Of a DNA stretch of 64,000 nt, positions 39,201 to 64,000 are shown piece by piece. Source of the stretch: Owenia fusiformis. Its lineage: Eukaryota. Under the pieces are notes generated by a model that was not told where the DNA came from, did not search any database, and saw only the letters and a program-made list of their open reading frames with translations. How positions within the stretch are numbered: the first letter of the stretch is position 1; each line of letters starts with the position of its first letter. A program made the translations under genes and the position numbers. Location of the stretch: contig CAIIXF020000001.1 of the NCBI GenBank assembly GCA_903813345.2, positions 372,001 to 436,000 on the forward strand. Direction: 5' to 3'.

Positions 39201-42200
39201 TCCAAATGCGGTAAGCAAAGGATTGGGCGTGTTATGTAGAATGTTTTTAAGATAAGCAAAGGATTGGGCGTGTTATGTAGAATGTTTTCAAGATAAGCAA
39301 AGGATTGAGCGTGTTATGTAGAATGTTTTTAAGATAAGCAAAGGATTGGGCGTGTTATGTAGAATGTTTTCAAGATAAGCAAAGGATTGGGCGTGTTATG
39401 TAGAATGTTTTCAAGATAAGCAAAGGATTGGGCGTGTTATGTAGATTGTTTTCAAGATAAGCAAAGGATTGAGCGTGTTATGTAGACTGTTTTCAAGAAA
39501 AGCAAAGGGTTGGGCGTGTTATGTAGAATGTTTTCAAGATAAGCAAAGGATTGACCGTGTTATGTAGAATGTTTTCAAGACAAGCAAAGGATTGGGCGTG
39601 TTATGAAGATTGTTTTTAAGATAAGCAAAGGATTGGGCGTGTTATGTAGAATGTTTTCAAGATAAGCAAAGGATTGAGCGTGTTATGTAGACTGTTTTCA
39701 AGAAAAGCAAAGGGTTGGCCGTGTTATGTAGAATGTTTTCAAGATAAGCAAAGGATTGACCGTGTTATGTAGAATGTTTTCAAGACAAGCAAAGGATTGG
39801 GCGTGTTATGTAGAATGTTTTTAAGATAAGCAAAGGATTGGGCGTGTTATGTAGAATGTTTTCAAGATAAGCAAAGGATTGGGCGTGTTATGTAGAATGT
39901 TTTCAAGATAAGCAAAGGATTGGGCGTGTTATGTAGATTGTTTTCAAGATAAGCAAAGGATTGAGCGTGTTATGTAGACTGTTTTCAAGAAAAGCAAAGG
40001 GTTGGGCGTGTTATGTAGAATGTTTTCAAGATAAGCAAAGGATTGACCGTGTTATGTAGAATGTTTTCAAGACAAGCAAAGGATTGGGCGTGTTATGAAG
40101 AATGCTTTCAAGATAAGCAAAGGATTGGGCGTGTTATGTAGAATGTTTTCAAGATAAGCAAAGGATTGAGCGTGTTATGTAGACTGTTTTCAAGAAAAGC
40201 AAAGGGTTGAGCGTGTTATGTAGACTGTTTTCAAGATAAACAAAGGATTGGGCGTGTTATGTAGAATGCTTTCAAGATGCAACATCGCGTGCTTTACAAA
40301 ATATATGTTGACATTTTAAAACTTTCAACATAATACCATATGCGTCTTTTGATATTTTGGAAGACACAATTTATCTTAACGTTTTGATTTTTGATGCAAG
40401 TATAATATATATGATAAAGGTTGAAAAAGCTCTGAAGATCTGAATTGTTAAGAAAATATAAAAACATGGGATGTCATCAAAAAATTTGTCCACGATGGGC
40501 GAATTACCCACCCCATTTAATGAGTATACCATTATGGGGGTAACATTTAGTTCTGTTTGAAGTCCAATAACGCCAGGAGTAAAAGCCATTGGAAACAGCG
40601 AAAGAGTATCATGCTCTAATGGTGACATGATAATATTTATGTGGTTTCAGTACCCTTATAAAAAATTCAACCTTGAAAGTCCGAATTTAAATCGTTTCTA
40701 TCAATCATTGAATACTGATTGTTTCAACTACTAAGATCAAAGGAAAAACCATCGTACAATGATAAGCAATCATTGTGCAACCATTGGGTTCAACCAAGTG
40801 AAGTCAACTCTTTTTCAATGACTGTGCAACCGTTTCTATACAATAATTTTATCTGCAACCATTGTAAACTGCAACCATTTCACATTAAAATGCAAATGGT
40901 TGCAATATGTTTTGTTCGATGAATACATATTTCAACCCCTGCAACCATCCTGAATTAGTATTGTTCCAAAAAATTATCATCTTACCTGAATCTACCTCTA
41001 TTCAACAACAGTATATTAGGATATTTTTTCTGCATACATACATGTATGTTTATCATAGTATATTCAGATATTAAGTATGTTTGTTTTTGCAGTATGGATT
41101 TAGGAATGCGATACATACCAGACTAGTTTTTCACTCAATGGCATTTGATAATGATGTATCTTTAATGTTAATAATTATGAAAAGAATTGAGCAAAATTCC
41201 AATTTGGTAAGAAATTGACCAAGAAAAATCTTAAGATTTCCTTTAAACTTAACAAAATCACAAGATGAGACAATGGTTTTTGTTCATGATCAGACTGATG
41301 ATCAAGAGAAGCAGGATTTGTTGTACAAAATAATGCAATCATATGTAATCACAAGTTGATTGCTTTATTTAGTGAGAATGATTTTTCAAATGTATCCATA
41401 TATCAGTCAAGCCATGTAAGTAAGTCAACATTCGAAAATAAAAATCTCAAAAATCGTACATCTTTGATTTCCAAAATAATTTGTGAGGTGGTTATTTAGA
41501 TGATAATACACATTTTAACGCACTAATTTTGAGTAAACCTCGAATCCATTCTCAACAAAGCGTTCTCGAAATAAGTATTCGAAATGTTTAAGTTCGGGAT
41601 GATAAAAGTACGTTAAGATATACCGCTCCTTAACAAACTCCTTTGGGAACAAGATATAGAATCAAATGCATGTTCTTCCTATTTACTCCCTGACACATGC
41701 CAATGAATGTTGCATAAGTAAATATCTCCGTTTTAAAAGATTTTGAAAACTTTGTTCTCTACAGGTGCCATGTTTTATAATTGAAAAACAAAATTGAACA
41801 TTTTGCATTTCTAGATTAACTGTAAACGATTTAAGTCATTAATAATATTTCCCTTAGTGAACCCATGCTGAATAGACAGTAACTGGGTCAATTATTTGTG
41901 TTCAACCTTGTTTTCATGACTTTTAAACATGAGTCGACGATTATGTTGGAAATTTCATTTCCAAATGTAAGCGTGTCAACTCCTGTTTTTACACAATATT
42001 CAGCCCTTTATAATGATAGATCGCCAAAATATGCATGTACCTCTCAATTAGGCGATATGTTTTTCAATTTATAGATGTAAACTATAAACTCAAACAAAAA
42101 TTCAAACCACTCGCTCTATTATTTTGATTACACAAGACGAAATTTCACCTCTGGGGAGCACTTTGGTATCACTTTGAAGGAGGATTCTTGAAAAATCGTT

Positions 42201-45200: not shown

Positions 45201-48200
45201 GACGGCAGCGACGAAATAAATTGTGGTAAGAAGAAACAATTTAGATTTAGACTGAAACCTGGATGACATTAACATCACTGGGCAAGATTAACTGGATTGG
45301 CCTACTGTATTTATTATTTGTCGAACTGATGAATCATTTGGCATTTTATTGTTTAGCCATATTTAGAATACTCGAAGTGATTTATATGCTTTGGTTTATA
45401 ATAAATACTTGTGCACAAATGCAAAATGAATGACCAAAAAAAAGGAAACATAAAAGAGTACACCAGTCATAAGGAAAACAAACCCCAACTATCACAAACC
45501 ATAATCTGACGTGAAAAGAAACAATGGATAATATCACCTTCCCTCACCATTTAGGTACCATTATCACAACCCAAGACCACAGCACCGAGGGGCATTCCAT
45601 TGGTACTAAAGTCATTACAATATTGAAAAACAAATCTCAAATAAATTCATATATACTATCCTATCCATCCTATCTTATCCTATCCTATCCTATACCATCC
45701 CATCCCATCCCATACCATACCATACCATACCATACCATACCATACCATACCATACCATACCATACACCATACCATACTATACTATAGTACTCTCGACATC
45801 ATGGTAGTTGTAATTAGCATTCATACATGTTATAGAATTCAGTCTCAAATGACGTTGGAAAGATAATGGAATCCAGTCCCAACACCCATAAGCGTATCAA
45901 AGGGTCAACATCCATCCGCAAAGCCGACACTATAATCCATAAAACAATGATTCACATTTAGTCATTAAGAGAAAACTATGGCTTGTTTACTGGATTTTAA
46001 AAACATGCTTTACATGCTTTTTTTACGGCCAGTGGCAAATGCCTCACTTGCAATCCTATTCGATCAGCACAATGAAATTCTTGATCATAAAATCGAAGAA
46101 CATTACTCCTTACTCCCTGCGCAAATAAAATAGTGAAAAGGTCCATTTAAATAGTTTTGTATCTGACTATAAATTCATTTGTTTTAGAAAATCACTTTTA
46201 TTGCGACAACGGGTTATACATTCCACGTTCTTCGCTTATATGTGACAAATGGGTGGATTGCAAATGGACGCAGTTAGATGAACTGAATTGTAAGTTGTCT
46301 TACCAACATACAATGGACGAGTAAATTATTGTTAATTTTGACATGTTAAACGAATCTAGCTCTTTAGCTGAGACATTCTAATAGTTATGAACATGAATAA
46401 GACAGATTTATTATAAAGACACATTAGCCCGAACATGAAACAATGAACTTCGAATAATGGTTTTGCTTTATTAAAATTATGAATTTCCAAGGTGATGCAT
46501 GCAGTGGGCCCGAGGACTTTCAATGTAATAACGGACGTTGTATCAGGGCATCCAACGTTTGCGATGGAGTGTGCGATTGTGCCACCTCTTGTGATGATGA
46601 AAATGAATGTGGTGAGATTTGATTTATAATTATGTAGTAGTGAGGTGTTCACAGGGCATATTCTGTAGGGAATTGTTCATATGACATGTTCTAAATTGAA
46701 ATGTTCAAAGAGCATGTTCTGTAGTGAAGTGTTACAGGGCATGTTGTGGAGTGAATTTTTAATATAGCATATTCCGAAGTCACATGTTCATAGGCCACGT
46801 TCTGTAGTGAATTGTTCAGGAGCATGTTCTGTTGTGGAGTTTTCACAGGGCATATTCTGTAGGGAATTGTTCAAAGAGCATGATCTGTAGTGGAGTTTTC
46901 TTAGGGCATGTTCTGCAGTGAATTGTTCAGAAGCATGTTCTGTAGTGAAGTGTTCATGGGGCATATTCTGTAAGGAATTGTTCAAAGAGTATGTTCTGTA
47001 GTGGGGTTTTCATAGGGCATGTTCTGCAGTGAATTGTTCAGGAGCATGTTCTGTAGTGGAGTTTTCACAGGGCATATTGTTCAGAAGCATGTTCTGTAGT
47101 GAAGTGTTCATAGGTCATATTCTGTAGTTCTGTAGTGAAGTGTTAACAGGGCATGTTCTAAAGTGGCGTTCAAAGGGCATGTTCTGCAGTGAATTGTTCA
47201 GGAGCATGTTCTGCAGTGTAGTTTTCATAGGGCATGTTCTGCAGTGAATTGTTCAAAGAGCATGTTCTGCAGTGAAGTGTTCATGGGGCATATTCTATAT
47301 ATAATAAATTGTTCAAAGGGTATGTTCTGCAGTGGATTGTTCATAGGTCATGATATATAGTGGTGTTCAAAGGGTATGTTCTGTAGTGAATTGTTCATAT
47401 AGCATACTATGTAGTGAATTGATCATAGGTCATGTTCTATAGTGGTGTTCAAAGGGTATGTTCTGTAGTTAAGTGTTCATAGGCCATGTTCTATAGTGGT
47501 GGTTATTACGTATGTTCTATAGTGAATTTTTCATAGGTCATGTTGCATAGTTTTATTCAAAGGGTATGTTCTGTAGTGAAGTGTTCATAGGCGATGTTCT
47601 ATAGTGGTGTTTATTACGTATGTAATGTAGTGAATTCTTGTCATGTTGTAAAGAGGTGTTCAAAAGGTATGTTCTGCAATGAATTGTTCATAGGTCATGA
47701 TATATAGTGGTGTTAAAAGGGTATGTTCTGTAGTGAGTGAAGTGCATAGGACATGTTCTATATTGGTGTTCAAAGGGCGTGTTCTGTAGTGAAGTGTTAA
47801 TAGGGCATGTTCTGCAGTGAATTGTTCAAAGTGCATGTTCTGTAGTGAATTGTTCATGGGGCATATTCTATAGTAAATTGTTCAAAGAGTCTGTTCTGTA
47901 GTGAAGTGTTCATAGGGTATGTTCTGCAGTTAATTAATTGCTCAGGAGCATGTTCTAAAGAGAAGTGTTCATAGGTCATGTTATATAGTGGTGTTCAAAG
48001 GGCATGTTATATAGTGGTGTTCAAAGGGCATGTTCCGTAGTGAAGTGTTCAAATGGAATATTCTGTAGTGAAGTGTTCATGTGGCATATTATATAGTGAA
48101 ATGCGTGTTTATAGGGTATATTCTGTAGTTCTATAGTGAAGTGTACTCAAAGTGCATGTTCTGAAGTGGTATTCAAAGGACATGTTTTGTAATGAAGTTT

Positions 48201-51200
48201 TTATATGACATATTCTGTGGTGAAGTGTTCAAAGGGCATGTTCTGTAGTGAAGTTTTCATATGGTATGTTCTGTAGTGAAATGTTCAAACGACATGTTCT
48301 GTAGTGAGGTGTTCATAGGTAATATTTTGTAGTTCTATTGTGCAGTGTTCAAAGGGCATACTCTGTAATGAAGTTTTCATATGACATGTTCTGTAGTGAA
48401 GTATTGAAAGGGCATTTTCTATCGTGAAGTTTTCGAAGGGCATGTTCTGCAGTGAAGTGTTCAAAGGACATATTTTTTAATGAAGTGTTCATAGGGCATA
48501 CTCTGTAGTGAAGTGTTCAAAGGGCATTTTCTGTAGTGAAGTGTTCAAAGTGCATTTTCTGTAGTGAATTGTTCATAAGACATTTTCTGCAGTGAATTGT
48601 TCATAGGGCATGTTCTGTAGTGAAGTGTTCATATGTCATGTTTTTAGTTAAGTTTTAATATGACACGTTATGCAATGAAGCGTTCAAAGAGCATGTTCTG
48701 TAGTGAGGTGTTCATAAGGCAAGTTCTGCAGTGAAGTGTTCAAATGGAATAGTCTGTAGTGAAGTGTTCATGTGGCATGTTCTATAGTGAAATGCGTGTT
48801 TATAGGGTATATTATGTAGTTCTATAGTGACGTGTTCATAGTGCATGTTCTGAAATGGTATTCAAAGGACATGTTTTGTAGTGAAGTTTTCATATGACAT
48901 ATTCTATAGTGAAGTGTTCAAAGGGCATGTTCTGTAGTGAAGTTTTCACATGGCATGTTCTGTAGTGAAGTTTTCATATGACATATTCTATAGTGAAGTG
49001 TTCAAAGGGCATATTCTGTAGTGAAGTGGTCAAATGGCATATTCTGTAGTGAAGTGTTCATATGGCATATTCTGTAGTAAAGTGTTCACATGGCATGTTT
49101 TTATGTAAGTTTTCATATGACATGTTCTGTGGTGAAATTTTCGAAGGGCATGTTCTAGTGAAATGTAGTGAAATGTAGTGAAGTGTTCAAAGGGCATATA
49201 TTGTAGTGGTGTTCAAATGGCATGCTCTGATGTAGAGCCATATAAAATATTACACAGTTGTCGAGCTGAGATAAAACAAAGGACATATATATAAGTGTTT
49301 CAAGTTGTAAGCATTTTAGTTTGCCAAAAGTGCTTTCGTGAAATTAAGAAATATGTGTATGGGCCATAAAATTGAACCTTGTGTTACTCCATAATTTATT
49401 GAGATGTAAAGAAGATAATATCCGACCAGGAAAATGTACTTCACACTAAAATAAGGCATGTATAATGGGTTTTGATTTTTAGAGTTTACATGCGTTGGAA
49501 AGTTTGACTGTAGCAGTCGTCAACACGGGAATATAGCAGACTGGAGAGGGGGTAGGTGCATTGACTGGAAGTTCGTTTGTGATGGTGTGAACGATTGTTG
49601 GGACAGCGGTAGAGGGCGCGACGAGTCATATTGCAGTAAGCTGATAATATGAACATGTAGCCTATATTTCATTTGGAGCTTATTTTAATTGATTTGGGTA
49701 TCAAAAATTTAGAATTGACCATGATGCAGAAAATGAATATGACAGTCCTTAGTATATGTGATATTCAATCTGAGTGGTTAATTTGCCGAATGGTCAAATT
49801 TTATCATTTTTCTAATTTTAATGACAAGGAACTTCACATTGAATATCACTATGAAGATGATATTTCCGACGTTTTATTTTCCGAAATTAGGCAATGGGTA
49901 AATTAAATGATTGGGCAAAATTACCACATCTATTTATCCATACGCCACGCAATGATTCTAGCACACACCTGGTTTAAGTTCTTATCTTGCGCCAGAGCCT
50001 TGTAGACATGTGTACATCATACGCATATCTGATGGTGGAGTGGATACAACAGGTCAATTCTTATGTTATCTGACTCACCTCACTTTATACTTTTTATTTT
50101 GACAAAAGAAAGGCATATTTGAGACTCTACACCATGTAATTATAAATCGTATGTATTCATATATAAACTTGGTGTTGAATATATTGCATAGATACAGGGT
50201 GGTCCATATTTTTTATATCGATATAACTTCTTAAAAAATGTATGGATTTTCATAAAAGTTTGGCAGGCTATAGCAGGAATCAATTTCACAAATGTTCCAA
50301 AAGTGGGATAAATAAATCTTAAAGGGGTTTCTGAATAATAAAGGTAAACAGACACTAAGGGTCTATATGAAAGCTGAGTCAAGGATGGTTGTATACGCTG
50401 TTGAAATTTTTACTTCTGATAGGAATAAAAGCATCGAGAGTGTATCGAGACCGATAAGGAAGATGAGATGGACTGGTTAATCTTTAATCGTCAAGAAAAA
50501 CGAAACTGGCAGGCGAATGTTTGGATGAAAAATGATGTTATTTTATTGACTTGTAATTTATATTTATAGTATTCATCTGAGTCTTAGAGGATAATGAAGA
50601 AACAGGTTCTTTACTGTGTGGGCTCAATCGAGCACCATACTGATCTTTCTCTCCACAACTAGGATCTCAGAATAGCTTCACTGAGGACAGATTTTCCCAA
50701 ATTACTGTTATCTCTTGATGCTGAATTAGTTTTTTTCCATCTTACTTATTTATCTGAGATACTTCTAATGTTATCCCATTTTTTCTGGAAATCAGTCCAG
50801 AATATACGGAACACCCTACCCCATGCTTTTTTCGGACAGACTGTCTAATATGGCAATTTAGTACTTTGATTTGAGGCATGACGGATATCAGTGGACAATT
50901 GTTACTTTGATTAACATTCTGATACATGTAATCGAATAGACCGAGTGTCTGTTTATGTACCTTTATTACTCAAAAACACATAGAGATTTATCCCATTTTT
51001 GAACATTTGTAAAATTGATTCCTGCATATTCTGCCAACATTTTATTGAAATCGATGCATTAACAAAAAATTGATATCGAAAAAAAAATAAGGACGTTTTT
51101 TGGCTTACCCTGTATATATACACACAGCCTTCTCGGACAAACACATTATGCACTATTGCAAAGACCCCAGTTGTATAAAGTGTTTATGGGACACCCTGTA

Positions 51201-54200
51201 TACGACTATGACTACTTCTTTCAGAGACTCCCGGTGACGATTTTTGCAGAAACTCAAATGCCTACAACAATGATCTGAGGTGCATAGGGAATTGCTTGAG
51301 ATCCAACCTTGTATGCAACTATGTCAAGGACTGTCGGGATGGCAGGGACGAGGTCGGATGTGGTAAATAATACCATATAATTGGAATATATTGTTTCAAA
51401 TAAGATTTTGAGGGATTATTAACACACTATTTCTATTCTAAAGTAATACATTGGACATTTAATATGTCACAAATGGCCTTCTGTTATTCATTATTGTAAT
51501 AATAATAGCGCCTCAATTTATTTCTCTAACATTTCTACTTAACTTGATCCAAGTCAACAACTCAGATGAGATATTCTGTTAATAAACAAGTGCACTCGAC
51601 CCAAATATGGAAAATGAAAGTGTATTAACACAAATTGTAGGTTACCTCGACATCCCTTGTAGCAAATCTGAGTTTATGTGTCATAGTGGACAGTGCGTTG
51701 ACGAGTCCTTACGATGTGATGGAGTCAGTCATTGCTTGGATCACTCAGATGAAACTAACTGTGGTACGTGTATTGTATATCATCCCATGCAGACAGATCG
51801 CCTAAAATTACATTCGTATGATGCTAGATGACAGCATGGGGTTTCTAGTTGAAAGACCATGATGACAGTCACATTGAGTTCTATGAGTATGAGAATAGCA
51901 TGCCGTCATGATGACAGTCACATTGAGTTCTATGAGTATGAGAATAGCATGCCGTCATGATGACAGTCACATTGAGTTCTATGAGTATGAGAATAGCATG
52001 CCGTCATTATGACAGTCACATTGAGTTCTATGAGTATGAGAATAGCATGCCGTCATGATGACAGTCACATTGAGTTCTATGAGTATGAGAATAGCATGCC
52101 GTCATGATGACAGTCACATTGAGTTCTATGAGTATGAGAATAGCATGCCGTCATTATGACAGTCACATTGAGTTCTATGAGTATGAGAATAGCATGCCGT
52201 CATGATGACAGTCACATTGAGTTCTATGAGTATGAGAATAGCATGCCGTCATGATGACAGTCACATTGAGTTCTATGAGTATGAGAATAGCATGCCGTCA
52301 TGATGACAGTCACATTGAGTTCTATGAGTATGAGAATAGCATGCCGTCATGATGAAGGTAACACATTCGAAAAGTGATGACTGTGATTGAAATGGTGATG
52401 TAAAGATAAAACCGTAATGAAATATTTGTAGATTTCTTTGAAAAACTAAGAAATACACATGAATAAAAACATGTATAAAAAGTAAGGCATGTAGGTCCGA
52501 TTCCCCCTGGTAGCATAACATTGGTCTCATACATGTCATACAATTAATATTTGAAATACAAATTCAACTTTCATTCGAACTTATGATCGCACATAAGCAT
52601 GATCTTTCTTTATTAATGTTACATTGAAATACACATCATACTTATGTCCGATCATAAGTTTGAATAATAGTTGGGTTTCAAATATTAATTGTATGACCTA
52701 TACGAGACCAAGGTTAATGCTACCAAGGGGCATCGGACCTACATGCCTTACTATTTATACAAGTCATGTTTTTTTCTGTTTTGAAAGAGTTCTAATTTTT
52801 TCAAAGAAATCTACAAATATTTCGCTACGGTTTTATCTTTACAGCGTCATTTCAATCACCGTCATCATTTTTAGGTGATCTGTCTGCATGGGGTGTATAT
52901 TTACGTCTATATAGTCGCTAAAATAGGTTTTCAGGAAGTTCGTGTTCGAATCGATTCCCCTTGATCACTGCCCTCTATCGAGATACACTAAGTTAAGTGC
53001 CTATAGGCTTGCGTAATGCAGTGCTTTTTTGAGATTCTTTCAGATAAATCTTATTGGATTATGGCGAATAGCTAGTTAAAGATCCTGTCCATATCCAAAT
53101 CGATTTTCGAAGAGAAAGTTAATCTCAATTTCATGTCTTTCGAACTTGTTACTACAACATTTACGTATAATCGAATTTACTATACCTTTAGGTGATCACG
53201 TGTGCAGGGATGACCAATGGCAATGTGCTAATGGTCAGTGTCTGATTGGATCACAAGTGTGTGACTATACACGAGATTGCTTTGACAACAGTGATGAAAA
53301 TAATTGTAGTGAGTAATTCAATATTTTGAATTTACGATTTGCTATATAGCTGGATAAATAGTTGGCAGCAGGTTTGTAATAAGACCAAGTTTCAAAAGTC
53401 ACTCAACCCTTTCCTGACAAGAATATAAGAGGAAAATGAGGAGTGAGAGCGTTGACAAGAATTATTACAAATTTGATGTAACAATACTGAATAGAACAGA
53501 AGATATCGTCATTCTATTTAAGGAATAAAAACCGAGATTTTATGATTTATGGCGTGATATATGACCGAAAATTTTATTCTGTTCATTGTTAAAAGACTGA
53601 AATCACGTAGCGATTGAATAAAATTTGAGGTCATATATTTGACATAAATCATAAAATCGAGGTCTTTGTTACGATTCTAATATGATAAACCGTCAAGAAA
53701 CAAAACTATTTGCTTTCATGAATTTTAGCGGTCATACATACTCCAATAAAGACCAGAATTCAATTGTTGTAGCTATTGTGACGTCACGTATCATATTAGA
53801 ATGATGTATATAAATAAAATAAGTATTGGGTAATATGGCTCCATATGGAGCCTATCGTCGTAGAAGGGTATATTTCTTGATGTATCAAGTATTTCCGTTT
53901 GTGTCAAAGGTAATATAATGAAGTCCAACCATTTTTTTTAGAAAACTTGAAAACAATTGGAAATTGAATAAAGGAAAATAACCAAGCGAATCAATTTAAA
54001 AAAAATAAATAACACATATTGAATTCAAATATGACCTAACTTAGCAGGGATTTAGGACTTTCCAGGGAATTAGTTCATCTATTTTATATCATGTGACCAT
54101 GAATAAGCCAATGAGCATCTAGAATACCTATGGGTTATATAATAGTGCATTTTGTAATGTGGCACCAAATTTAAATTAAATTTAAATTAGTAAAATAGTA

Positions 54201-57200: not shown

Positions 57201-60200
57201 TTAAAATATTGACCTAAAAAGTACTGCACGTGTATCCCTTAACATTTACGAGCATTAGCCTACTAACAAGAAAATCTGATATTTGAAAATATATTTCAAA
57301 TGGTGGAAGGACCCAGGGCCCGCGAATATTTGACCAGATTATTACTCCAAGGGTAGGGGAATTTACACATTTATTTGGCCCCGGGGTAAGGAATTAGACA
57401 GGTTAACTTTTTTTGTCAAATTCCCCATCCATTCCTGCTTGGGGGGGGGGGGGTGGTCTCACGCTAACTTTTGAATGCTGCATTACTTCATAAAATTGAT
57501 GTTTTATTTTCTTTTATCAATGAACAGTTTTGAAGACTTAAAAATAATTAACAAGATATTTGATTTCAGTGATTTGAGTAGAAATAACTTATCTTACATT
57601 CCGGCGGGTGTCTTTAAACAACTATGGCGGCTACAAGAATTGTAAGTAGTACCCAGATGCGAGTAAGTAGTTACCATTTTCACCACCAGGTGGCTGATTC
57701 GGGGTAAATAACATGGTAGGGTATTAGAGAATTCCTTGAATATTCATCAGTTTTAGTGGTTCCATTTTCATATTACCCTTATGTATCTGATAGTTATATA
57801 CACATTAAAATATGTCCAGTAAAGTAAAATATTATCTGTTCAATAAAGGAAAAATTCACTTTCTGTGACTTTATAACAAGGGGTTATTGGGTTTCCCCGA
57901 CATAGAAGTTACATTTTCAAAGAAAATAACATTTTCAAAGTTCAATTGGGTTATTTTGGATTGGATTTATTTCCTATTCAAGTGCTGTTTTTCTGACTGT
58001 TACGAACGAAGAGTTTTATTCTGTAAGGTTGGAATTCTATTTCTTTGCAAATACTATTGGATAGCACTTTATTGCAATTTTGAATTGTTATCATGTTTTT
58101 AGGAATCTTGGCGACAACTACATAAGCAGCATCACACAGGGGTCGTTCACAGGGCTATCCAGCCTTAGTAAATTGTAAGTTATCTGTAGCATGCATGGTG
58201 GATGACAACCTCATGTTGTCCAACATTCGTCTGACAATTATGAGGCTTTGTTTTTTAAACATATGTTCAGTTGGAGCAATATTATATCCATGGCACCTTT
58301 TATATAATTATACACTTCATTAGACAACTTAACAAATTACGAATGTACTTTGACATCTATACGACTTTGAATCAATTGATGTCAAAACCGCTAGTTGATA
58401 TCCAGTGATTTGAGGGTTTTGGTGAAATTTGAATTCATTTGCTTGACCCAGAACCGGAGAAAACCACAGGAAGGGGTTTTGCGATAAAAACTCGCCGTGC
58501 ATGGGAAAAGCTTAAATGATCTTTGACTTTTGATTATCTATTTCAGAACACTTGGAGGAAATTCAATAAGTTCAATCCAGCGATCTGGATTTAGTGGACT
58601 ATCGTCCCTTGGGATTCTGTAAGTTAATTTCCTCTTTAGACTAATATAAGGTCATTGATGACAAGGTAAACGTTTTGAATTTTGATTCGCTTTGATTTTG
58701 AAAGAATTTGTATAAGAAATCACCATGTTTTTATTTCAGTGATTTAAGGCACCAGAATTTGACAGCAGTTCACGCAGACTCGTTTCAGGGACTCAGGCAA
58801 CTTCGTAATCTGTAAGTTTGGAGAAATATTAGAAGAGTTAGAGATACGATTTCCGAATTATTTTGCTCTCATCATTCCACGTCATGCTTATTTATATTTA
58901 TAAAAGGTTGATCAATTCTGACTTTACTTCGGAATAATGAAAACAAAATAATGACTCTTACGAAAAAAATCACACGATTTTTAAAAAGATTGCATCCAAC
59001 ATTTTACAATCTCTATCCTTAGATTTTTTCTACAGGGATCTATCTTACAACAGAATTACACATATCAGTGACGGGGCCTTCAATGGACTTCAAGATCTTT
59101 TAAAGTTGTGAGTATCTATTAGATATGTAAGGACATTAATGTTCAAACATGACCATGTTTTATTAGAATCATCCAATCAGAATGCAGGCATATCCGTTCT
59201 ATAATTCTCAATAGATGAACGATCTATGTGCAATCATATATCCGGTGATAAATAATAAATTTGACTATTTGTAGAACCATTTCACACAACGTCATTGTTA
59301 CCATAGGAGAAAACGCTTTTAATGGACTAGGAAAACTGAATATGCTGTGAGTAACGATTACTTTAATAATACGATGTCTTGTAGTGTCTTATATACAGTA
59401 TAATACAATGTATAGTATAATTAGATGATAAGAATGTTGAATTTTAAAAACGGCGTTTTACTGCTTCATATGCGCTGTCATACACTCACCAACACAAATT
59501 AGAATGGGCGGTTGACAATCTCAAATTGCATTCAAGAATACAAGCCAATCATTATAGTTTGTGAAATGACCACAAAACAAATTGAAAATTATGAAAAATC
59601 AGCATTTTCGCAATTACTTACGATCTGTACTTTTTGAATTCTAGGACCACGGACGAATTTAAATTTTGTTGTCTAGCAAAACACGTAGAGAATTGTAATC
59701 CAAAGCCGGATGAATTTTCCTCTTGTGAAGACCTGATGTCCAACTTCGTTCTAAGGGCAAGTATATGGATCCTTGGTACAGTGGCATGCCTTGGAAACTT
59801 GGTAGTCGTTATATGGCGACTGAAAGAGTTCAGAGGATCAAAGGTAAGCATAACTCAAATATAGACTAAAGAGTAATGCATGGAGTTTAGAAAATTGAAC
59901 AGTAGTTGTTGGTGCAAGGGCGAACGTAATACTCGTAATGTGCTTCGATTCGTATGATACACAAACGTACTAAGCCCCGGGTATTAAATAAACCCTTGAT
60001 CGGTGTTGCCCACCGTTTAGTATAAAATGCGCGATCTTGGAAAAATACTCGGGGTAAACAGGTTGAGGACAATGTGTAAAGCCGTTTGTGTGTTGTGGCT
60101 CTTTATGTAGCAATACGCATTTGTAAAAGGAACATTTTTATTTTGATAAATCAATTTTACCTTTTATCGGTGAACTTTTAGGATTTTCGAAGTGAGAAAC

Positions 60201-63200
60201 ATTTATATTATAATATACCATTCAATTTTGTGATGATATATGTGTAATGGGAAACATTTTTAATTTACCAATCGATATTGTGATAATATGTGTTTAATGG
60301 AAAACATTTATATTTTAATTTACCAATCAATATTGTGATGATATTTGTTTATTGGAAAACATTCATATTTTGATTTACCAATCATATGTGTTTAATGGAA
60401 ACATTTATATTCTAATTTACCAATCGATATTGTGATAATATGTGTTTAATGGGAAACATTTATATTCTAATTTACCAATCAATATTGTGATAATATGTGT
60501 TTAATGTAAAACATTTATATTTTAATTTACCAATCAATATTGTGATAACATGTGTTTAATGGAAAACATCTATGTTTTGATTTACCGATCAATATTGTGA
60601 AAATATGTGTTTAATGTAAAACATTTATATTTTAATTTACCAATCAATATTGTGATAACATGTGTTTAATGGAAAACATTTATCTTTTAATTTACCAATC
60701 AATATTGTGATAATATGTGTTTAATGGAAAACATTTATGTTTTGATTTACCAATCAATATTGTGATAATATGTGTTTAAGTGGAAAACATTTATGTTTTG
60801 ATTTACCAATCAATATTGTGATAATATGTGTTTAATGGAAAACATTTATATTTTGATTTACCGCTCAATATTGTGAAAATATGTGTTTAATGGAAAACAT
60901 TTATATTTTAATTTACCAATCAATATTGTGATGATATGTGTTTAATGGAAAACATTTATCTTTTAATTTACCAATCAATATTGTGATAATATGAGTTTAA
61001 TGGAAAACATTTATGTTTTGATTTACCAATCAATATTGTGATAATATGTGTTTAATGGAAAACATTTATATTTTGATTTACCGCTCAATATTGTGAAAAT
61101 ATGTGTTTAATGGAAAACATTTATGTTTTGATTTACCAATCAATATTGTGATAAAATGTGTTTAATGGAAAACATTTATATTTTGATTTACCGCTTAATA
61201 TTGTGAAAATATGTGTTTAATGGGAAACCTTTATATTTTTATTTACCAATCAATATTGTGATAATATGTGTTTAATGGAAAACATTTATGTTTTGATTTA
61301 CCAATCAATATTGTGATGATATGTGTTTAATGGGAAATATTTATATTTTAATTTACCAATAAATATTGTGATAATATGTGTTTAATGGGAAACCTTTATA
61401 TTTTAATTTACCAATCAATATTGTGATAATATGTGTTTAATGGAAAACATTTATGTTTTGATTTACCAGTCAATATTGTGATAATATGTGTTTAATGGAA
61501 AACATTTATATTTTAATTTATCAATCAATATAGTGATAATATGTGTTTAATGGGAAACATTTAAAATTATTATTATCTTATTTCCAGATCCATTCATTCC
61601 TGATAACTAACCTTGCCATCGGCGACTTTCTGATGGGGCTCTATCTTCTCATAATTGCATCTGTGGACGCCTTCTATAGAGGGCACTACATAGTCTACCA
61701 CGACACTTGGAGAAAGAGCAGCATGTGTAACTTTGCTGGGTTCTTATCTACGTTCTCGTGTGAAATATCAGTATTTACCTTAACGGTGATTACCCTGGAC
61801 AGACTCATTGTAATCATATTCCCATTCAAGGCAAAGCGGATGTCTATAAGACAAGCCCGGGGTGTTATGCTGACAGCTTGGTTAGTCGTGTCCTTCCTGG
61901 CTGGACTACCCTTATCCAACGCACCTTACTTTAAAGACTTCTACGGTAGATCGGGTGTCTGCCTCGCACTTCATATCACACACGATAAACCCAATGGTTG
62001 GGAATATTCAGTATTTATATTTCTAGCGCTCAATATGGTATCATTTCTCTTTATTGCATCTTCTTATATATCAATGTTCATCGTTGCCAAGCGGACCCAA
62101 GGCGCCGTGCGAAGCCAGGAGGTAAAGAATGATACTAAGTTAGCGAGGAGGATGACGTTGATTGTTATGACGGACTTCTGCTGTTGGGTACCCATCATAT
62201 TACTGGGCATTATCTCCTTGATGGGGTTCAACATTCACTCCCAGGTACGTATTATTCTAAAAACTAATTGAATGTCGTTCATATTATCACTCATAGAAAA
62301 TTAATAAAATAAGTATTTATGTTGGGAATGCATTTATGTCACAACTTTCGCCTGGGAGACCATACATTTCTACCTCATTATGTTTTCAGATATACAATCC
62401 TGTGTGGATGTAATAGAGTTTATTTAATTATGGGATTAAATATGGTTATAATTCCAAGGAACAATATGATTTTTCCCAAGTGAATAAAATCTACATACGA
62501 TCCCTCCCAGTAAAACCTTTCTTCCATTTCATAATCTTTACAGATATACACCCTTTTATATGACTGCATTTTTTCTTTCCCTATCATTGCTTTCAGAAAA
62601 ATTCCTGCCTGGCTACATCATTCTCCCTCATTTTGCTTTCAGATATGTTCCTCGTTGACTATATCGTTCTCCCTCATTTTGCTTTCAGTTATGTTCCTGG
62701 CTGGCTATATCTTCTTCCTCATTTTGATTTCAGATATACGCCTGCCTGGCTATATCATTCTCCCTCATTTTGCTTTCAGATATATTCCTGGTTGGCTATA
62801 TCGTTCTCCCTCATTTTAATTTCAGATATACGCCTGCGTGGCTATATCGTTCTCCCTCATTTTGCTTTCAGATATATTCCTGGCTTGTTATATCATTCTC
62901 CTTCATTTTGCTTTCAGATATATTCCTGGGTGGCTATATCATTCTCCATCATTTTGCTTTCAGATATATTCCTGCGTGGCTATATCGTTCTCCCTCATTT
63001 TGCTTTCAGATATGGTCCTGGTTGGCTATATCGTTCTCCCTCATTTTGCTTTCAGATATATTCCTGGCTGGCTATATCATGCTCCTTCATTTTGCTTTCA
63101 GATATATTCCTGGGTGGCTATATCATTCTCAATCATTTTGCTTTCAGATATATTCCTGCGTGGCTATATCGTTCTCTCTCATTTTGCTTTCAGATATGGT

Positions 63201-63694
63201 CCTGGTTGGCTATATCGTTCTCCCTCATTTTGCTTTCAGATATATTCCTGGCTGGCTATATCATTCTCCTTCATTTTGCTTTCAGATATATTCCTGGGTG
63301 ACTATATCGTTCTCCCTCATTTTGCTTTCAGATATGGTCCTGGCTGGCTATAGCGTTATCCCTCATTTTGATTTCAGATATGTTCCTGGTTGGCATCCCT
63401 CATTTTGCTTTCAGATATATTCCTGGTTGGGAATATCGTTCGCCCTCATTTTGTGTTAATATATATTCCTGGTTGACTATTTTATTCTCCCTCATTTTGC
63501 TTTAAGATATGTTCCTTGTTGGCTATATTTTTCTCCCTCATTTTGCTTTCAGATATACGCCTGGGTGGCTGTATTCGTTCTCCCTCTAAATTCAGCGCTG
63601 AACCCTGTAATATACACGATCTCAACAGCTCCGTTTCTCAAGCGTGCTCGTCTCTTAAGAAGATCATTCATGACTAAGGACACCAGTAGTACAG
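9204..63694 (+). CDS. GRL101: GRL101-like G protein-coupled receptor (12 LDLa + LRR + 7TM; LGR type C2), spliced over 24 exons, 3' end probably beyond the window
   Basis: Exons join in frame through GT-AG introns (phase 1 for LDLa, phase 2 for LRR, phase 0 in the 7TM). Motifs [53 protein letters not shown] and [19 protein letters not shown] match my recollection of Lymnaea GRL101; no database search was run. Confidence 0.93.
10053..10128. repeat. 18-bp tandem repeat x4 (CCATGACCATATCAATAT)
   Basis: Exact copies at 10053, 10071, 10089 and 10107. Confidence 0.9.
11360..12603. repeat. 36-bp minisatellite (ATGGAACATTTTCCATTTACACCGCTGCTCATATTT), interrupted by the MITE
   Basis: About 1 unit to the left of the MITE and ~15 to the right; source of the 12-aa repeat ORFs. 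Confidence 0.9.
11410..12043. mobile_element. Tc1/mariner-type MITE (CAGGGTGTCCCG TIR, TA TSD)
   Basis: Long TIRs with TA on both sides; second copy at 33943-34567. Confidence 0.85.
13508..13732. repeat. 31-bp minisatellite, ~7 copies (GAGGCGACTTATATCCAAAGGGCATGAAGAT)
   Basis: Unit starts at 13540, 13571, 13602, 13633, 13664 and 13695. Confidence 0.85.
15987..16217. mobile_element. MITE with GAG termini and 4-bp ATAT TSD (Sola2-like)
   Basis: ATAT|GAGCCAGGCCA...TGGCCAGGCTC|ATAT. Confidence 0.65.
17149..17574. mobile_element. hAT-type MITE, 8-bp TSD ATTTTGAC
   Basis: TAGGAGTTCCACGATT...AATCGTGGGACCCCTA flanked by ATTTTGAC; internal AATCG motifs. Confidence 0.75.
18012..20124. mobile_element. 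2.1-kb element, CAC...GTG ends, ~490-bp inverted arms, 5-bp TSD GTATA
   Basis: GTATA|CACCCCGGGTGA...TCACCCGGGGTG|GTATA; arm homology fades inward to ~18505 and ~19630. Confidence 0.85.
20161..21196. mobile_element. Animal EnSpm/CACTA-like non-autonomous element, 2-bp TSD GA
   Basis: GA|CACTCTTAAAAAT...ATTTTTAAGAGTG|GA; subterminal TACTT/AAGTA repeats. Confidence 0.65.
23697..23852 (+). CDS. GRL101: Exon 2: LDLa1 ([33 protein letters not shown])
   Basis: TTACAG acceptor, GTGAGT donor, 6 Cys. Confidence 0.88.
24115..24600 (+). pseudogene. Decayed L1/Tx1-clade LINE reverse transcriptase fragment
   Basis: Collinear SQ*ADDTTLF (YADD with a stop), [28 protein letters not shown] and [18 protein letters not shown], separated by frameshifts. 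Confidence 0.8.
25889..28279. mobile_element. 2.4-kb element, CAC...GTG ends, ~250-bp near-perfect TIRs, 5-bp TSD TAGAT
   Basis: TAGAT|CACTGGGGATGAAC...GTTCATCCCCAGTG|TAGAT; repeated AACGAGGCA subterminal motifs. Confidence 0.9.
26855..27095. mobile_element. MITE nested in the 25889-28279 element
   Basis: TAGGGAGCTTAAGC...GTTAAACCTCCCTA imperfect TIRs. Confidence 0.55.
29292..30829. mobile_element. 1.5-kb element, CAC...GTG ends, ~430-bp diverged TIRs, 5-bp TSD TAATC
   Basis: TAATC|CACGCCTAACCA...TGGTTAGGTGTG|TAATC; arms 29292-29720 and 30395-30829. Confidence 0.8.
31305..32182 (-). mobile_element. Hairpin-type element with an internal tandem duplication and AATCGTATT repeats
   Basis: Duplicated blocks ~31305-31555 and ~31730-32015; terminal hairpin ~31993-32182; related fragments at ~3090 and ~62430-62520. 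Confidence 0.6.
33943..34567. mobile_element. Tc1/mariner-type MITE, second copy (inverted relative to 11410-12043)
   Basis: TA|CAGGGTGTCCCG...CGGGACACCCTG|TA. Confidence 0.85.
34898..35017 (+). CDS. GRL101: Exon 3: LDLa2 ([39 protein letters not shown])
   Basis: TTTTAG / GTAATG, phase 1-1, 120 nt. Confidence 0.9.
35056..36680. repeat. Element with an internal ~300-bp two-subunit tandem repeat and G-tracts
   Basis: Alternating subunits CCCTAGAAA.TTTTACAATTTTAAGATGCTATTTGGTG (x5) and CCCCAGAAACATT..C.ATATCAAGG.GCTATTTGATG (x4). Confidence 0.7.
37060..37960. repeat. Diverged tandem triplication of a ~210-330-bp unit
   Basis: GCCTTAAAA.CTCTGTCGATA recurs at ~37177, ~37390 and ~37700. Confidence 0.7.
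38316..38455. mobile_element. PIF/Harbinger-like (Tourist-type) MITE, TAA TSD
   Basis: TAA|TGCCTTGGTCACAT...ATGTGACCAAGGCA|TAA; partial relative at ~20577-20643. Confidence 0.75.
39094..39210 (+). CDS. GRL101: Exon 4: LDLa3 ([35 protein letters not shown])
   Basis: Weak AAG acceptor, GTAAGC donor, canonical DxSDE. Confidence 0.9.
39211..40277. repeat. 41-bp minisatellite, ~26 copies, starting at the exon 4 donor
   Basis: Unit ATAAGCAAAGGATTGGGCGTGTTATGTAGAATGTTTTCAAG; the first copy begins GTAAGC. Confidence 0.95.
40653..44665. mobile_element. Possible degraded EnSpm-like element
   Basis: Clusters of TGCAACC (40770-40950) and GGTTGCA (44460-44650) in opposite orientation; ends match only imperfectly. 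Confidence 0.35.
43245..43335. repeat. 21-bp tandem repeat, ~4 copies (TTGAACAGCTAATTAAAACGG)
   Basis: Direct inspection. Confidence 0.75.
45109..45225 (+). CDS. GRL101: Exon 5: LDLa4 ([35 protein letters not shown])
   Basis: TTTTAG / GTAAGA, canonical LDLa. Confidence 0.92.
45655..45786. repeat. Pentanucleotide microsatellite (CCTAT)n-(CCCAT)n-(CCATA)n
   Basis: Direct inspection. Confidence 0.95.
46188..46289 (+). CDS. GRL101: Exon 6: LDLa5, atypical 4-Cys module ([32 protein letters not shown])
   Basis: TTTTAG / GTAAGT; final Cys codon is split across the intron. Confidence 0.85.
46492..46611 (+). CDS. GRL101: Exon 7: LDLa6, 8-Cys module ([37 protein letters not shown])
   Basis: CCAAG / GTGAGA, 120 nt. 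Confidence 0.9.
46632..49228. repeat. 28-bp minisatellite, ~90 diverged copies (GGGCATGTTCTGTAGTGAAGTGTTCAAA)
   Basis: 28-bp period measured at 48524, 48552, 48580 and 48608. Confidence 0.9.
49483..49635 (+). CDS. GRL101: Exon 8: LDLa7 with loop insertions ([48 protein letters not shown])
   Basis: TTTTAG / GTAAGC, 153 nt. Confidence 0.9.
50195..51112. mobile_element. Old Tc1/mariner-type MITE (CAGGGT ends, TA TSD)
   Basis: ~130-bp diverged inverted ends. Confidence 0.6.
51225..51362 (+). CDS. GRL101: Exon 9: LDLa8 ([39 protein letters not shown])
   Basis: TTTCAG / GTAAAT, 138 nt. Confidence 0.88.
51641..51763 (+). CDS. GRL101: Exon 10: LDLa9 ([35 protein letters not shown])
   Basis: TTGTAG / GTACGT; visible in ORF 51607..51831. 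Confidence 0.92.
51781..52895. mobile_element. Foldback element, CA(C/T)...GTG ends, 5-bp TSD TATAT, with a minisatellite inside its left arm
   Basis: TATAT|CATCCCATGCAGACAGATC...GATCTGTCTGCATGGGGTG|TATAT; arms 52370-52603 and 52636-52870. Confidence 0.75.
51858..52354. repeat. 49-bp minisatellite, ~10 near-identical copies
   Basis: CATGATGACAGTCACATTGAGTTCTATGAGTATGAGAATAGCATGCCGT. Confidence 0.95.
53192..53308 (+). CDS. GRL101: Exon 11: LDLa10 ([35 protein letters not shown])
   Basis: CTTTAG / GTGAGT, 117 nt. Confidence 0.92.
53520..53803 (+). mobile_element. Hairpin + IR-cassette element
   Basis: Hairpin ~53525-53668; TTCTAATATGATA...TATCATATTAGAA. Confidence 0.55.
54237..54356 (+). CDS. 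GRL101: Exon 12: LDLa11 lacking SDE ([36 protein letters not shown])
   Basis: TTCCAG / GTAAGT, 120 nt. Confidence 0.9.
54567..54698 (+). CDS. GRL101: Exon 13: LDLa12 ([38 protein letters not shown])
   Basis: AAACAG / GTAAGG, 132 nt. Confidence 0.88.
55172..55292 (+). CDS. GRL101: Exon 14: LRR N-terminal cap ([26 protein letters not shown])
   Basis: TTTCAG / GTAGGT, switch from phase 1 to phase 2. Confidence 0.9.
56023..56091 (+). CDS. GRL101: Exon 15: LRR ([23 protein letters not shown])
   Basis: TTCCAG / GTAAGA, 69 nt, phase 2-2. Confidence 0.88.
56318..57482. mobile_element. Non-autonomous DNA transposon with TTA TSD
   Basis: GCATTCAAAAGTTTGCGTGAGACC / GGTCTCACGCTAACTTTTGAATGC; internal GGAATTTGA repeats. 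Confidence 0.6.
57570..57641 (+). CDS. GRL101: Exon 16: LRR ([24 protein letters not shown])
   Basis: 72-nt phase 2-2 exon, TTTCAG / GTAAGT. Confidence 0.92.
58103..58174 (+). CDS. GRL101: Exon 17: LRR ([24 protein letters not shown])
   Basis: 72 nt, TTTTAG / GTAAGT. Confidence 0.92.
58547..58618 (+). CDS. GRL101: Exon 18: LRR ([24 protein letters not shown])
   Basis: 72 nt, TTTCAG / GTAAGT. Confidence 0.92.
58740..58811 (+). CDS. GRL101: Exon 19: LRR ([24 protein letters not shown])
   Basis: 72 nt, TTTCAG / GTAAGT. Confidence 0.92.
59036..59107 (+). CDS. GRL101: Exon 20: LRR ([24 protein letters not shown])
   Basis: 72 nt, CTACAG / GTGAGT. Confidence 0.92.
59275..59346 (+). CDS. GRL101: Exon 21: LRR ([24 protein letters not shown])
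   Basis: 72 nt, TTGTAG / GTGAGT. Confidence 0.92.
59645..59843 (+). CDS. GRL101: Exon 22: hinge (TDEFKFCC...[10 protein letters not shown]) and TM1
   Basis: ORF 59634..59864; TTCTAG / GTAAGC, phase 2 to phase 0. Confidence 0.95.
60225..61562. repeat. 55-bp AT-rich minisatellite, ~24 copies, ending ~25 nt before the exon 23 acceptor
   Basis: Unit AATATTGTGATAATATGTGTTTAATGGAAAACATTTATATTTTAATTTACCAATC. Confidence 0.92.
61588..62244 (+). CDS. GRL101: Exon 23: TM2-TM6
   Basis: ORF 61543..62271; TTCCAG / GTACGT; 657 nt. Confidence 0.97.
62583..63585 (+). repeat. 46-bp minisatellite made of the splice acceptor plus the start of the TM7 exon, ~22 units
   Basis: Unit CATTTTGCTTTCAG|ATATATTCCTGGCTGGCTATATCGTTCTCCCT; the last unit is the real exon 24 junction. 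Confidence 0.95.
63553..63694 (+). CDS. GRL101: Exon 24: TM7 and proximal C-tail ([39 protein letters not shown]...)
   Basis: TTTCAG acceptor at 63551-63552; NPxxY motif; CAG|GTGAGA donor at 63695 (read-through would stop at 63741). Confidence 0.92.
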
Positions 63695-64000
63695 GTGAGA
63701 AGAGAAAGATGGCAGTATTTATTTGTATAGTTATACCTTGAAATTCCATCTTCTGTCACCCAGTCACGACCCCAGGGTCCCAAATGGGGAAGATACTTCA
63801 CATTTATCAATTGCAACAAGTATGACATTCGGTTCATCGGTGGGTTCGACCGCCCTGGAAAGGGGAGGCTCTTAGAAGTGTACTTTTGTAAAGATGGTTC
63901 TCATAAAATCTCAAGGCATAATAAATCGCGAAGACCCATTATGCATTTGTGTTACCTTGTTTATCATTTACAAACATCCTCCGACACAGAGGTCCGACAT

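Follow-up and report, generated by a model that had tools for sequence, protein, structure and literature searches.

At NAGNAG acceptors, two AGs lie 3 nt apart, share a branch point and a pyrimidine tract, keep the message in frame and are both used. The reiteration of a splice site by a minisatellite is known from human genes. In intron 7 of F7, the first unit of a 37-bp VNTR spans the exon 7/intron 7 donor boundary (PMC1557585). This VNTR has 5-9 copies and creates 4-8 identical pseudo-donors, which are functional by mutagenesis and silent, with the most upstream, exon-attached site always winning (PMC1557585). Minisatellites at exon/intron borders, with a splice site reiterated in 10-26 units, were also described in human IFI6 (6-16), CBS, LMNB2 and PDGF (PMC1557585). 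In IFI6/6-16 there are 25 pseudo-donors, and the two nearest are used as well, likewise in CBS; in LMNB2 and PDGF the authentic site alone is used (PMC1557585). Engineered tandem duplications of globin splice sites, with two copies in mammalian cells, gave conflicting outcomes between groups (PMC1557585). In human ABCA7, the length of a 25-bp VNTR in intron 18 correlates with exon skipping and with expression (PMC5954066). The donor-reiterating minisatellites (F7, IFI6, CBS) are natural test beds for 5' splice-site choice. In a search of the literature outside subscription journals, which is no proof of absence, we found no acceptor-side junction minisatellite described as such, the exception being a single line on a FAM20C VNTR (PMC5941971).

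The window analysed here is a 64,000-nt stretch of the genome of the annelid Owenia fusiformis, and the host gene of the array encodes a GRL101-like LGR. Using tblastn with P0001, a public O. fusiformis protein of 1144 residues, we observed 24 coding exons between 9204 and 63696, and the earlier exon numbering stands. The precomputed domains of P0001 are LDLa (PF00057), leucine-rich repeats (PF13855/PF12799/PF00560) and a rhodopsin-type 7TM domain (7tm_1, PF00001), the combination that defines a GRL101-like (type C-like) LRR GPCR. The best named relatives of P0001 were GRL101-like receptors from many phyla (235 proteins at E<=1e-20 among 1193 candidates).

Exon 23 (61588..62244, + strand, 657 nt) encodes TM2-TM6 of the 7TM domain and ends in phase 0 (...CAC TCC CAG). 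Its match to Pfam 7tm_1 (E=3.2e-25) covered profile positions 20-228 of 260, and its translation was 100% identical to P0001, with tblastn locating it at 61585-62247. Exon 24 (63553..63694, + strand, 142 nt, phase 1 end) codes for TM7, with its NPxxY, and for the beginning of the C-tail, and corresponds to P0001 residues 1021-1068. The initial annotation had ended this exon at 63697; we corrected the end to 63694, the donor of intron 24 (GTGAGA, 63695..63700, + strand) having its GT at 63695-63696. P0001 has 76 further residues after exon 24 that are absent from the window, so the last coding exon lies beyond it. The gene model behind P0001 employs the junction 62244|63553. TM7, including NPxxY, was conserved in 15 of the 15 aligned homologues (picked from 120 listed), which indicates that the exon sequence is ancestral and that the repeat was copied from the exon and not the reverse.

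Intron 23 (62245..63552, + strand) is a GT..AG intron of 1308 nt, placed by an RNA joint that skips 1308 nt (cut +3) and by reading of the sequence, and about three quarters of it is a tandem array. Tandem Repeats Finder reported this array at 62587-63586 with a period of 46, 21.9 copies, 85% matches, 2% indels and a score of 1347. When the array was printed in register, we observed 21 decoy units of 46 bp (62585..63538, + strand) and a 22nd, authentic unit (63539..63585, + strand). The unit consists of CATTTTGCTTTCAG, followed by a copy of the initial 32-33 nt of exon 24. Taken with the preceding ...CT, every unit has a branch-point-like CTCAT 12 nt upstream of its own AG, a pyrimidine tract and a CAG. 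In the authentic unit, the CTCAT-like branch candidate has its A at 63540, also 12 nt from the true AG, and the pyrimidine tract and the CAG ending at 63552 are followed by the first 33 nt of exon 24. An intact (T/A)TTTCAG was present in 19 decoys, with AGs ending at 62596, 62642, 62688 and 62733, at 46-nt intervals from 62779 through 63377, and at 63414. The two impaired decoys are the units closest to the true site: unit 20 (63447-63492) has TTAAT and no AG, and unit 21 (63493-63538) has TTTAAG, ending at 63506. The exact exon start, ATATACGCCTG, is retained in the units after 62733 and 62825. This anatomy bears out what the initial annotation had proposed, namely some 21 decoys in 46-bp units taken from the junction of the TM7 exon (pyrimidine tract, CAG and about 32 nt of exon 24), with all the acceptor ends that it listed, two exact exon starts, and weakening of the two units nearest the true site.

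An array of this kind cannot have arisen by chance. It is a head-to-tail array whose 46-bp unit falls in the range of about 10-100 bp that characterizes a junction-spanning minisatellite, and its terminal unit carries the real boundary 63552|63553, so the splice site is reiterated within the intron. Upstream of it are two older, decayed copies of the junction (62376..62566, + strand), whose likeness to the 46-bp unit was judged by eye only; their acceptor-like AGs end at 62389 and 62543, and each is followed by ATATAC.... The array also contains open frames of 245, 243 and 177 codons (62564-63459), which may mislead gene predictors. A comparison of the 243-codon frame with public proteins of near and longer lengths gave nothing at E<=0.001, and a Pfam search with the 245-codon frame gave no match.

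To compare the strength of the sites, we used an acceptor matrix (-20 to +3) built from 22 other acceptors of the same gene, whose leave-one-out scores had a mean of 5.0 bits (sd 3.1). The true site scored 7.6 bits. Scores of 5.7-9.8 were obtained for the 19 intact decoys, and one of 4.5 for the AAG decoy of unit 21. Eight decoys were identical to the true site across all 23 nt (-20..+3). The decayed upstream AGs at 62389 and 62543 scored 7.2 and 6.2 bits. The decoys are thus equal or nearly equal to the authentic acceptor, as the pseudo-sites of a junction-spanning minisatellite are, and since they score like the true site, the local acceptor sequence cannot explain site choice.

The coding consequences of decoy use are uniform. 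For all 31 non-authentic AGs of intron 23, the reading frame meets a stop before exon 24 is complete, and the frames that had been named earlier do close at 63301, 63353 and 63459. As P0001 continues past exon 24, the stop of an extended exon 24 would be followed by another exon junction. A stop in such a position is the usual configuration for NMD, and by this general rule a decoy-spliced mRNA would be an NMD target. The decoys would define exons of 280-1098 nt. Recursive re-splicing after use of a decoy was also considered; the joint of exon 23 with a decoy reads CAG|ATAT, with no GT, which makes this unlikely.

We further examined site choice in RNA. Three raw-read RNA-seq runs with the same species label (X12, X13 and X14) were mapped on 59500-64000, together with the contigs of run X1; the sample comprised about 6% of the reads in X12 and in X13 and about 12% in X14, and joints in fewer than 3 reads were not listed. 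The sole joint listed was 62244|63553 (1308 nt, GT..AG), with 3 reads at 3 starts in X12, 2 reads at 2 starts in X13 and 0 in X14, which had zero reads on the gene. Exon 23 was covered to a depth of up to 4.2 in X12 and about 3 in X13 (about 19 reads altogether), and exon 24 was also covered. At this very low depth, and with NMD uninhibited, RNA depth was 0 in all 7 bins of 62369-63425 in 3 of the 3 runs. Since X1 contigs did map within the array, the missing RNA reads are not due to a failure to map it. Were every mRNA spliced to a decoy picked at random, some 12 reads should have fallen in the array, and 0 were observed. This puts a rough 95% ceiling of about 25% on decoy use at steady state; the counts behind it are small (5 junction reads and approximately 19 exon-23 reads), and NMD-degraded products are hidden from it. 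The sparse RNA data thus favour the last, exon-attached copy.

The reads of X12 and X13 also share with an X1 contig the other allele at exon-23 sites 61878, 62004 and 62227. The animals of the RNA runs therefore have three exon-23 alleles in common with X1, a run with contigs that reach into the array from either side. These sites could mark alleles for splicing counts.

The reading that we consider rather likely is that the array is a tolerated, locus-specific minisatellite in which the exon-attached copy wins, likely via exon definition or proximity, and that it is not a regulatory device. A segment of about 46-47 bp astride the intron-23/exon-24 boundary of the GRL101-like LGR gene would have been duplicated in tandem, and would have grown into a minisatellite confined to this locus, partly via unequal exchange of 4-unit blocks. 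The outcome would be 19 full-strength acceptor copies in intron 23, each with its branch-like CTCAT, pyrimidine tract and CAG. Exon 23 would still be joined to the last copy, the sole one that runs on into the remainder of exon 24 and that stands 142 nt upstream of the GTGAGA donor. The most likely cause would be exon definition, or else the short distance to the downstream donor, presumably aided by the exon sequence past the duplicated 33 nt. Any use of a decoy would place a premature stop ahead of the final exon junction, and NMD would remove the product. A counterpoint to exon definition is that exon 23 itself has 657 nt, so that length alone does not exclude the nearer decoys (280-370 nt).

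The initial annotation had left two interpretations side by side: either the spliceosome skips some 19 strong acceptors, or the array yields a series of altered-TM7 isoforms and NMD substrates through which copy number tunes receptor output. The first fits the data, as the decoys score like the true site and the only listed joint goes to 63553. The second found no support, as there were no array reads beside the approximately 19 exon-23 reads and no public protein resembled an array frame. A form of it has nevertheless to be weighed, in which splicing is regulated and unproductive: the decoys would be used appreciably, their products would be removed by NMD, and array length or decoy integrity would set the amount of productive receptor mRNA. 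That the decoys match the true site in strength, and that every one of them leads to a stop upstream of a further exon junction, is in keeping with such regulation, as is the correlation of VNTR length with splicing and expression in human ABCA7 (PMC5954066). The acceptor core is also unusually well kept. Among the 19 distal decoys we observed 4 variant states in the 14-nt acceptor part, while the 32 columns copied from the exon held 36 (binomial P=0.002). Against this, 5 of the 5 listed junction reads were at the true site, no joint to any decoy was listed in the three low-depth RNA runs, so that a stop-introducing splice variant was not seen in them, and no protein model contains array sequence. 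We therefore regard regulated unproductive splicing as unlikely.

A different role for the array would be one in cis, in the unspliced transcript, with the pyrimidine tracts loading U2AF/PTB-type factors and thereby helping or timing the recognition of the true acceptor. It would explain why tract and AG are retained together: across the 19 distal decoys, no 6-column window other than TTTCAG (19/19) was free of variation, and the CA of CTCAT was invariant in 21 of the 21 units. However, the 14-nt acceptor part ranked 2nd of 46 circular windows, an empirical P of only about 0.04. The invariance of TTTCAG could reflect the low mutability of a CpG-free, T-rich stretch or preferential homogenisation, and these would serve as well as selection keeping the decoys. 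Moreover, the orthologous exon is spliced in other phyla, where we know of no comparable array. Such loading in cis seems to us very improbable. It has to be said that plain neutral decay does not predict the conservation of TTTCAG, and this is the main unexplained point of the tolerated-minisatellite reading. In a more general proposal, which we hold to be quite doubtful, the decoys are kept by selection, as suggested by a TTTCAG that is constant amid variable columns in the 19 distal units and by the disabling of just the two units beside the true site. The array would then be a graded sink, sending a set share of the transcripts to NMD, or a multivalent platform for 3' splice-site factors; if so, array length would be a heritable dial for receptor dosage.

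The units retain traces of how the array may have grown. Units 7-18 showed a higher-order periodicity of 4 units (184 bp), with an identity of 0.921 at lag 4 vs 0.86-0.89 at lags 1-3, and this peak points to amplification of 184-bp blocks, probably through unequal exchange. The exon's ATATAC start persists in units 4 and 6 and in the pair of decayed copies upstream, whereas units in the centre read ATATAT. Divergence was higher at the two edges of the array than in its middle. The chance that both AG-impaired units would be those nearest the true site is 1/210, a P value calculated post hoc, and in unit 20, 4 of 8 differences fell inside the 8-nt core (P=0.035). The impairment of units 20 and 21 fits selection against close competitors, which has probably disabled the decoys closest to the true site, although the array edges also diverge more generally.

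The presence of the array was also seen in the contigs of run X1. These enter it from both sides, one at 61529-62638 (exon 23 into the first unit) and one at 63400-63990 (unit 19 to past exon 24), and at the inner array pieces 62900-63000 and 63222-63297 the contigs had 0 differences. The flanks of the X1 contigs differ from the window by SNPs; as these contigs enter the array, a second haplotype or individual must carry an array. The X1 word depth was 12-41 in the array and about 20-25 in its flanks, and this similarity indicates that the 46-bp unit is not a dispersed element. Tandem arrays are error-prone in assemblies, and no single X1 contig spans this one (short-read contigs break inside), but the unit-specific variants, the 4-unit pattern, the SNP-distinct contigs at both ends and the flank-like depth leave it hardly credible that the assembler collapsed, expanded or invented the array.

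A different pattern was observed at 59953-60103 (core about 59969-59999, about 31 nt), where the X1 word depth was about 980 vs 15-25 nearby. This stretch occurs, each time between different flanks, in many transcripts of all 3 RNA runs and on both strands, and probably belongs to a dispersed element.

Other large minisatellites, at least five, also lie in introns of the window (36 bp x 15.5, 41 bp x 26, 28 bp x 90, 49 bp x 10 and 55 bp x 21.5), which indicates that arrays arise readily in this genome. The 41-bp minisatellite (39212-40278, 26 copies, 93% matches) begins at +2 of intron 4. The true donor of this intron is G|GTAAGC, and the 41-bp units repeat TAAGC... after GA, giving pseudo-donors without the G of GT; this array is on the donor side and narrowly fails to copy a working site. 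The 55-bp minisatellite (60384-61563, 21.5 copies) accounts for the greater part of intron 22 and stops 24 nt short of the acceptor of exon 23. When we evaluated an origin of this array from the exon-23 junction, the local alignment score was 17 vs 14.6 +/- 2.4 for dinucleotide shuffles; a score as high came from 180 of 1000 shuffles and from 485 of 2000 genomic windows, so this origin was rejected. The degenerate 28-bp array (46637-49156, 90 copies, 69% matches, higher-order periods of 111 and 160) starts 27 nt past the exon-7 donor. Its derivation from the exon-7 junction was likewise rejected, the score being 11, with 784 of 2000 genomic windows as high. The 49-bp array (51858-52355, 10.2 copies) lies 93 nt past exon 10; its units are 99% identical, with 1 variant state in 49 columns, and the array is evidently of very recent origin.

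For the animal, the array in intron 23 is probably harmless ballast, lying within an essential, TM7-encoding junction. For the study of splicing, the locus offers a series of about 20 acceptors of equal strength, every one with a tract and a branch-like motif of its own, and it could separate models of 3' splice-site choice such as first-come-first-served, branch-point scanning and exon definition.

When compared with the systems described at the outset, the Owenia array resembles NAGNAG acceptors in that several AGs compete for one exon. The AGs of the array are 46 nt apart, however, and have their own tracts, their use would bring a frameshift or a stop, and only one AG was seen to be used; the locus is thus not of the NAGNAG kind. 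In the engineered globin duplications (PMC1557585), identical acceptors compete as they do here, and the Owenia locus is a natural, 20-fold version of these. The ABCA7 VNTR is also an intronic repeat whose unit carries a splice motif, and there the retention of one unit gives a frameshift and a premature stop (PMC5954066). In ABCA7, however, the motif is a donor and the next exon is skipped (PMC5954066), whereas in Owenia no effect on splicing was detected at low depth. IFI6, CBS, LMNB2 and PDGF are all donor-side, while the Owenia array is acceptor-side; and the two nearest pseudo-sites are used in IFI6 and CBS (PMC1557585), whereas the two nearest decoys are mutated in Owenia. The likeness to F7 extends to several features. 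In both, the terminal unit lies on the splice junction, so that identical pseudo-sites repeat the authentic one, and the use of a pseudo-site would mostly shift the frame. The exon-attached site is the only one used physiologically in F7 (PMC1557585), and it was the only one seen in use in the few RNA reads of Owenia. They differ in that a donor is repeated in F7 and the most upstream copy wins (PMC1557585), whereas in Owenia it is an acceptor with 19 intact copies and the most downstream appears to win. The pseudo-sites of the human gene were functional by mutagenesis (PMC1557585), while the decoys of the annelid are predicted to be functional from their sequence scores. Together, these comparisons have led us to conclude that the Owenia array is the acceptor-side mirror of the donor-side minisatellites, with unusually many intact copies and an annelid host.
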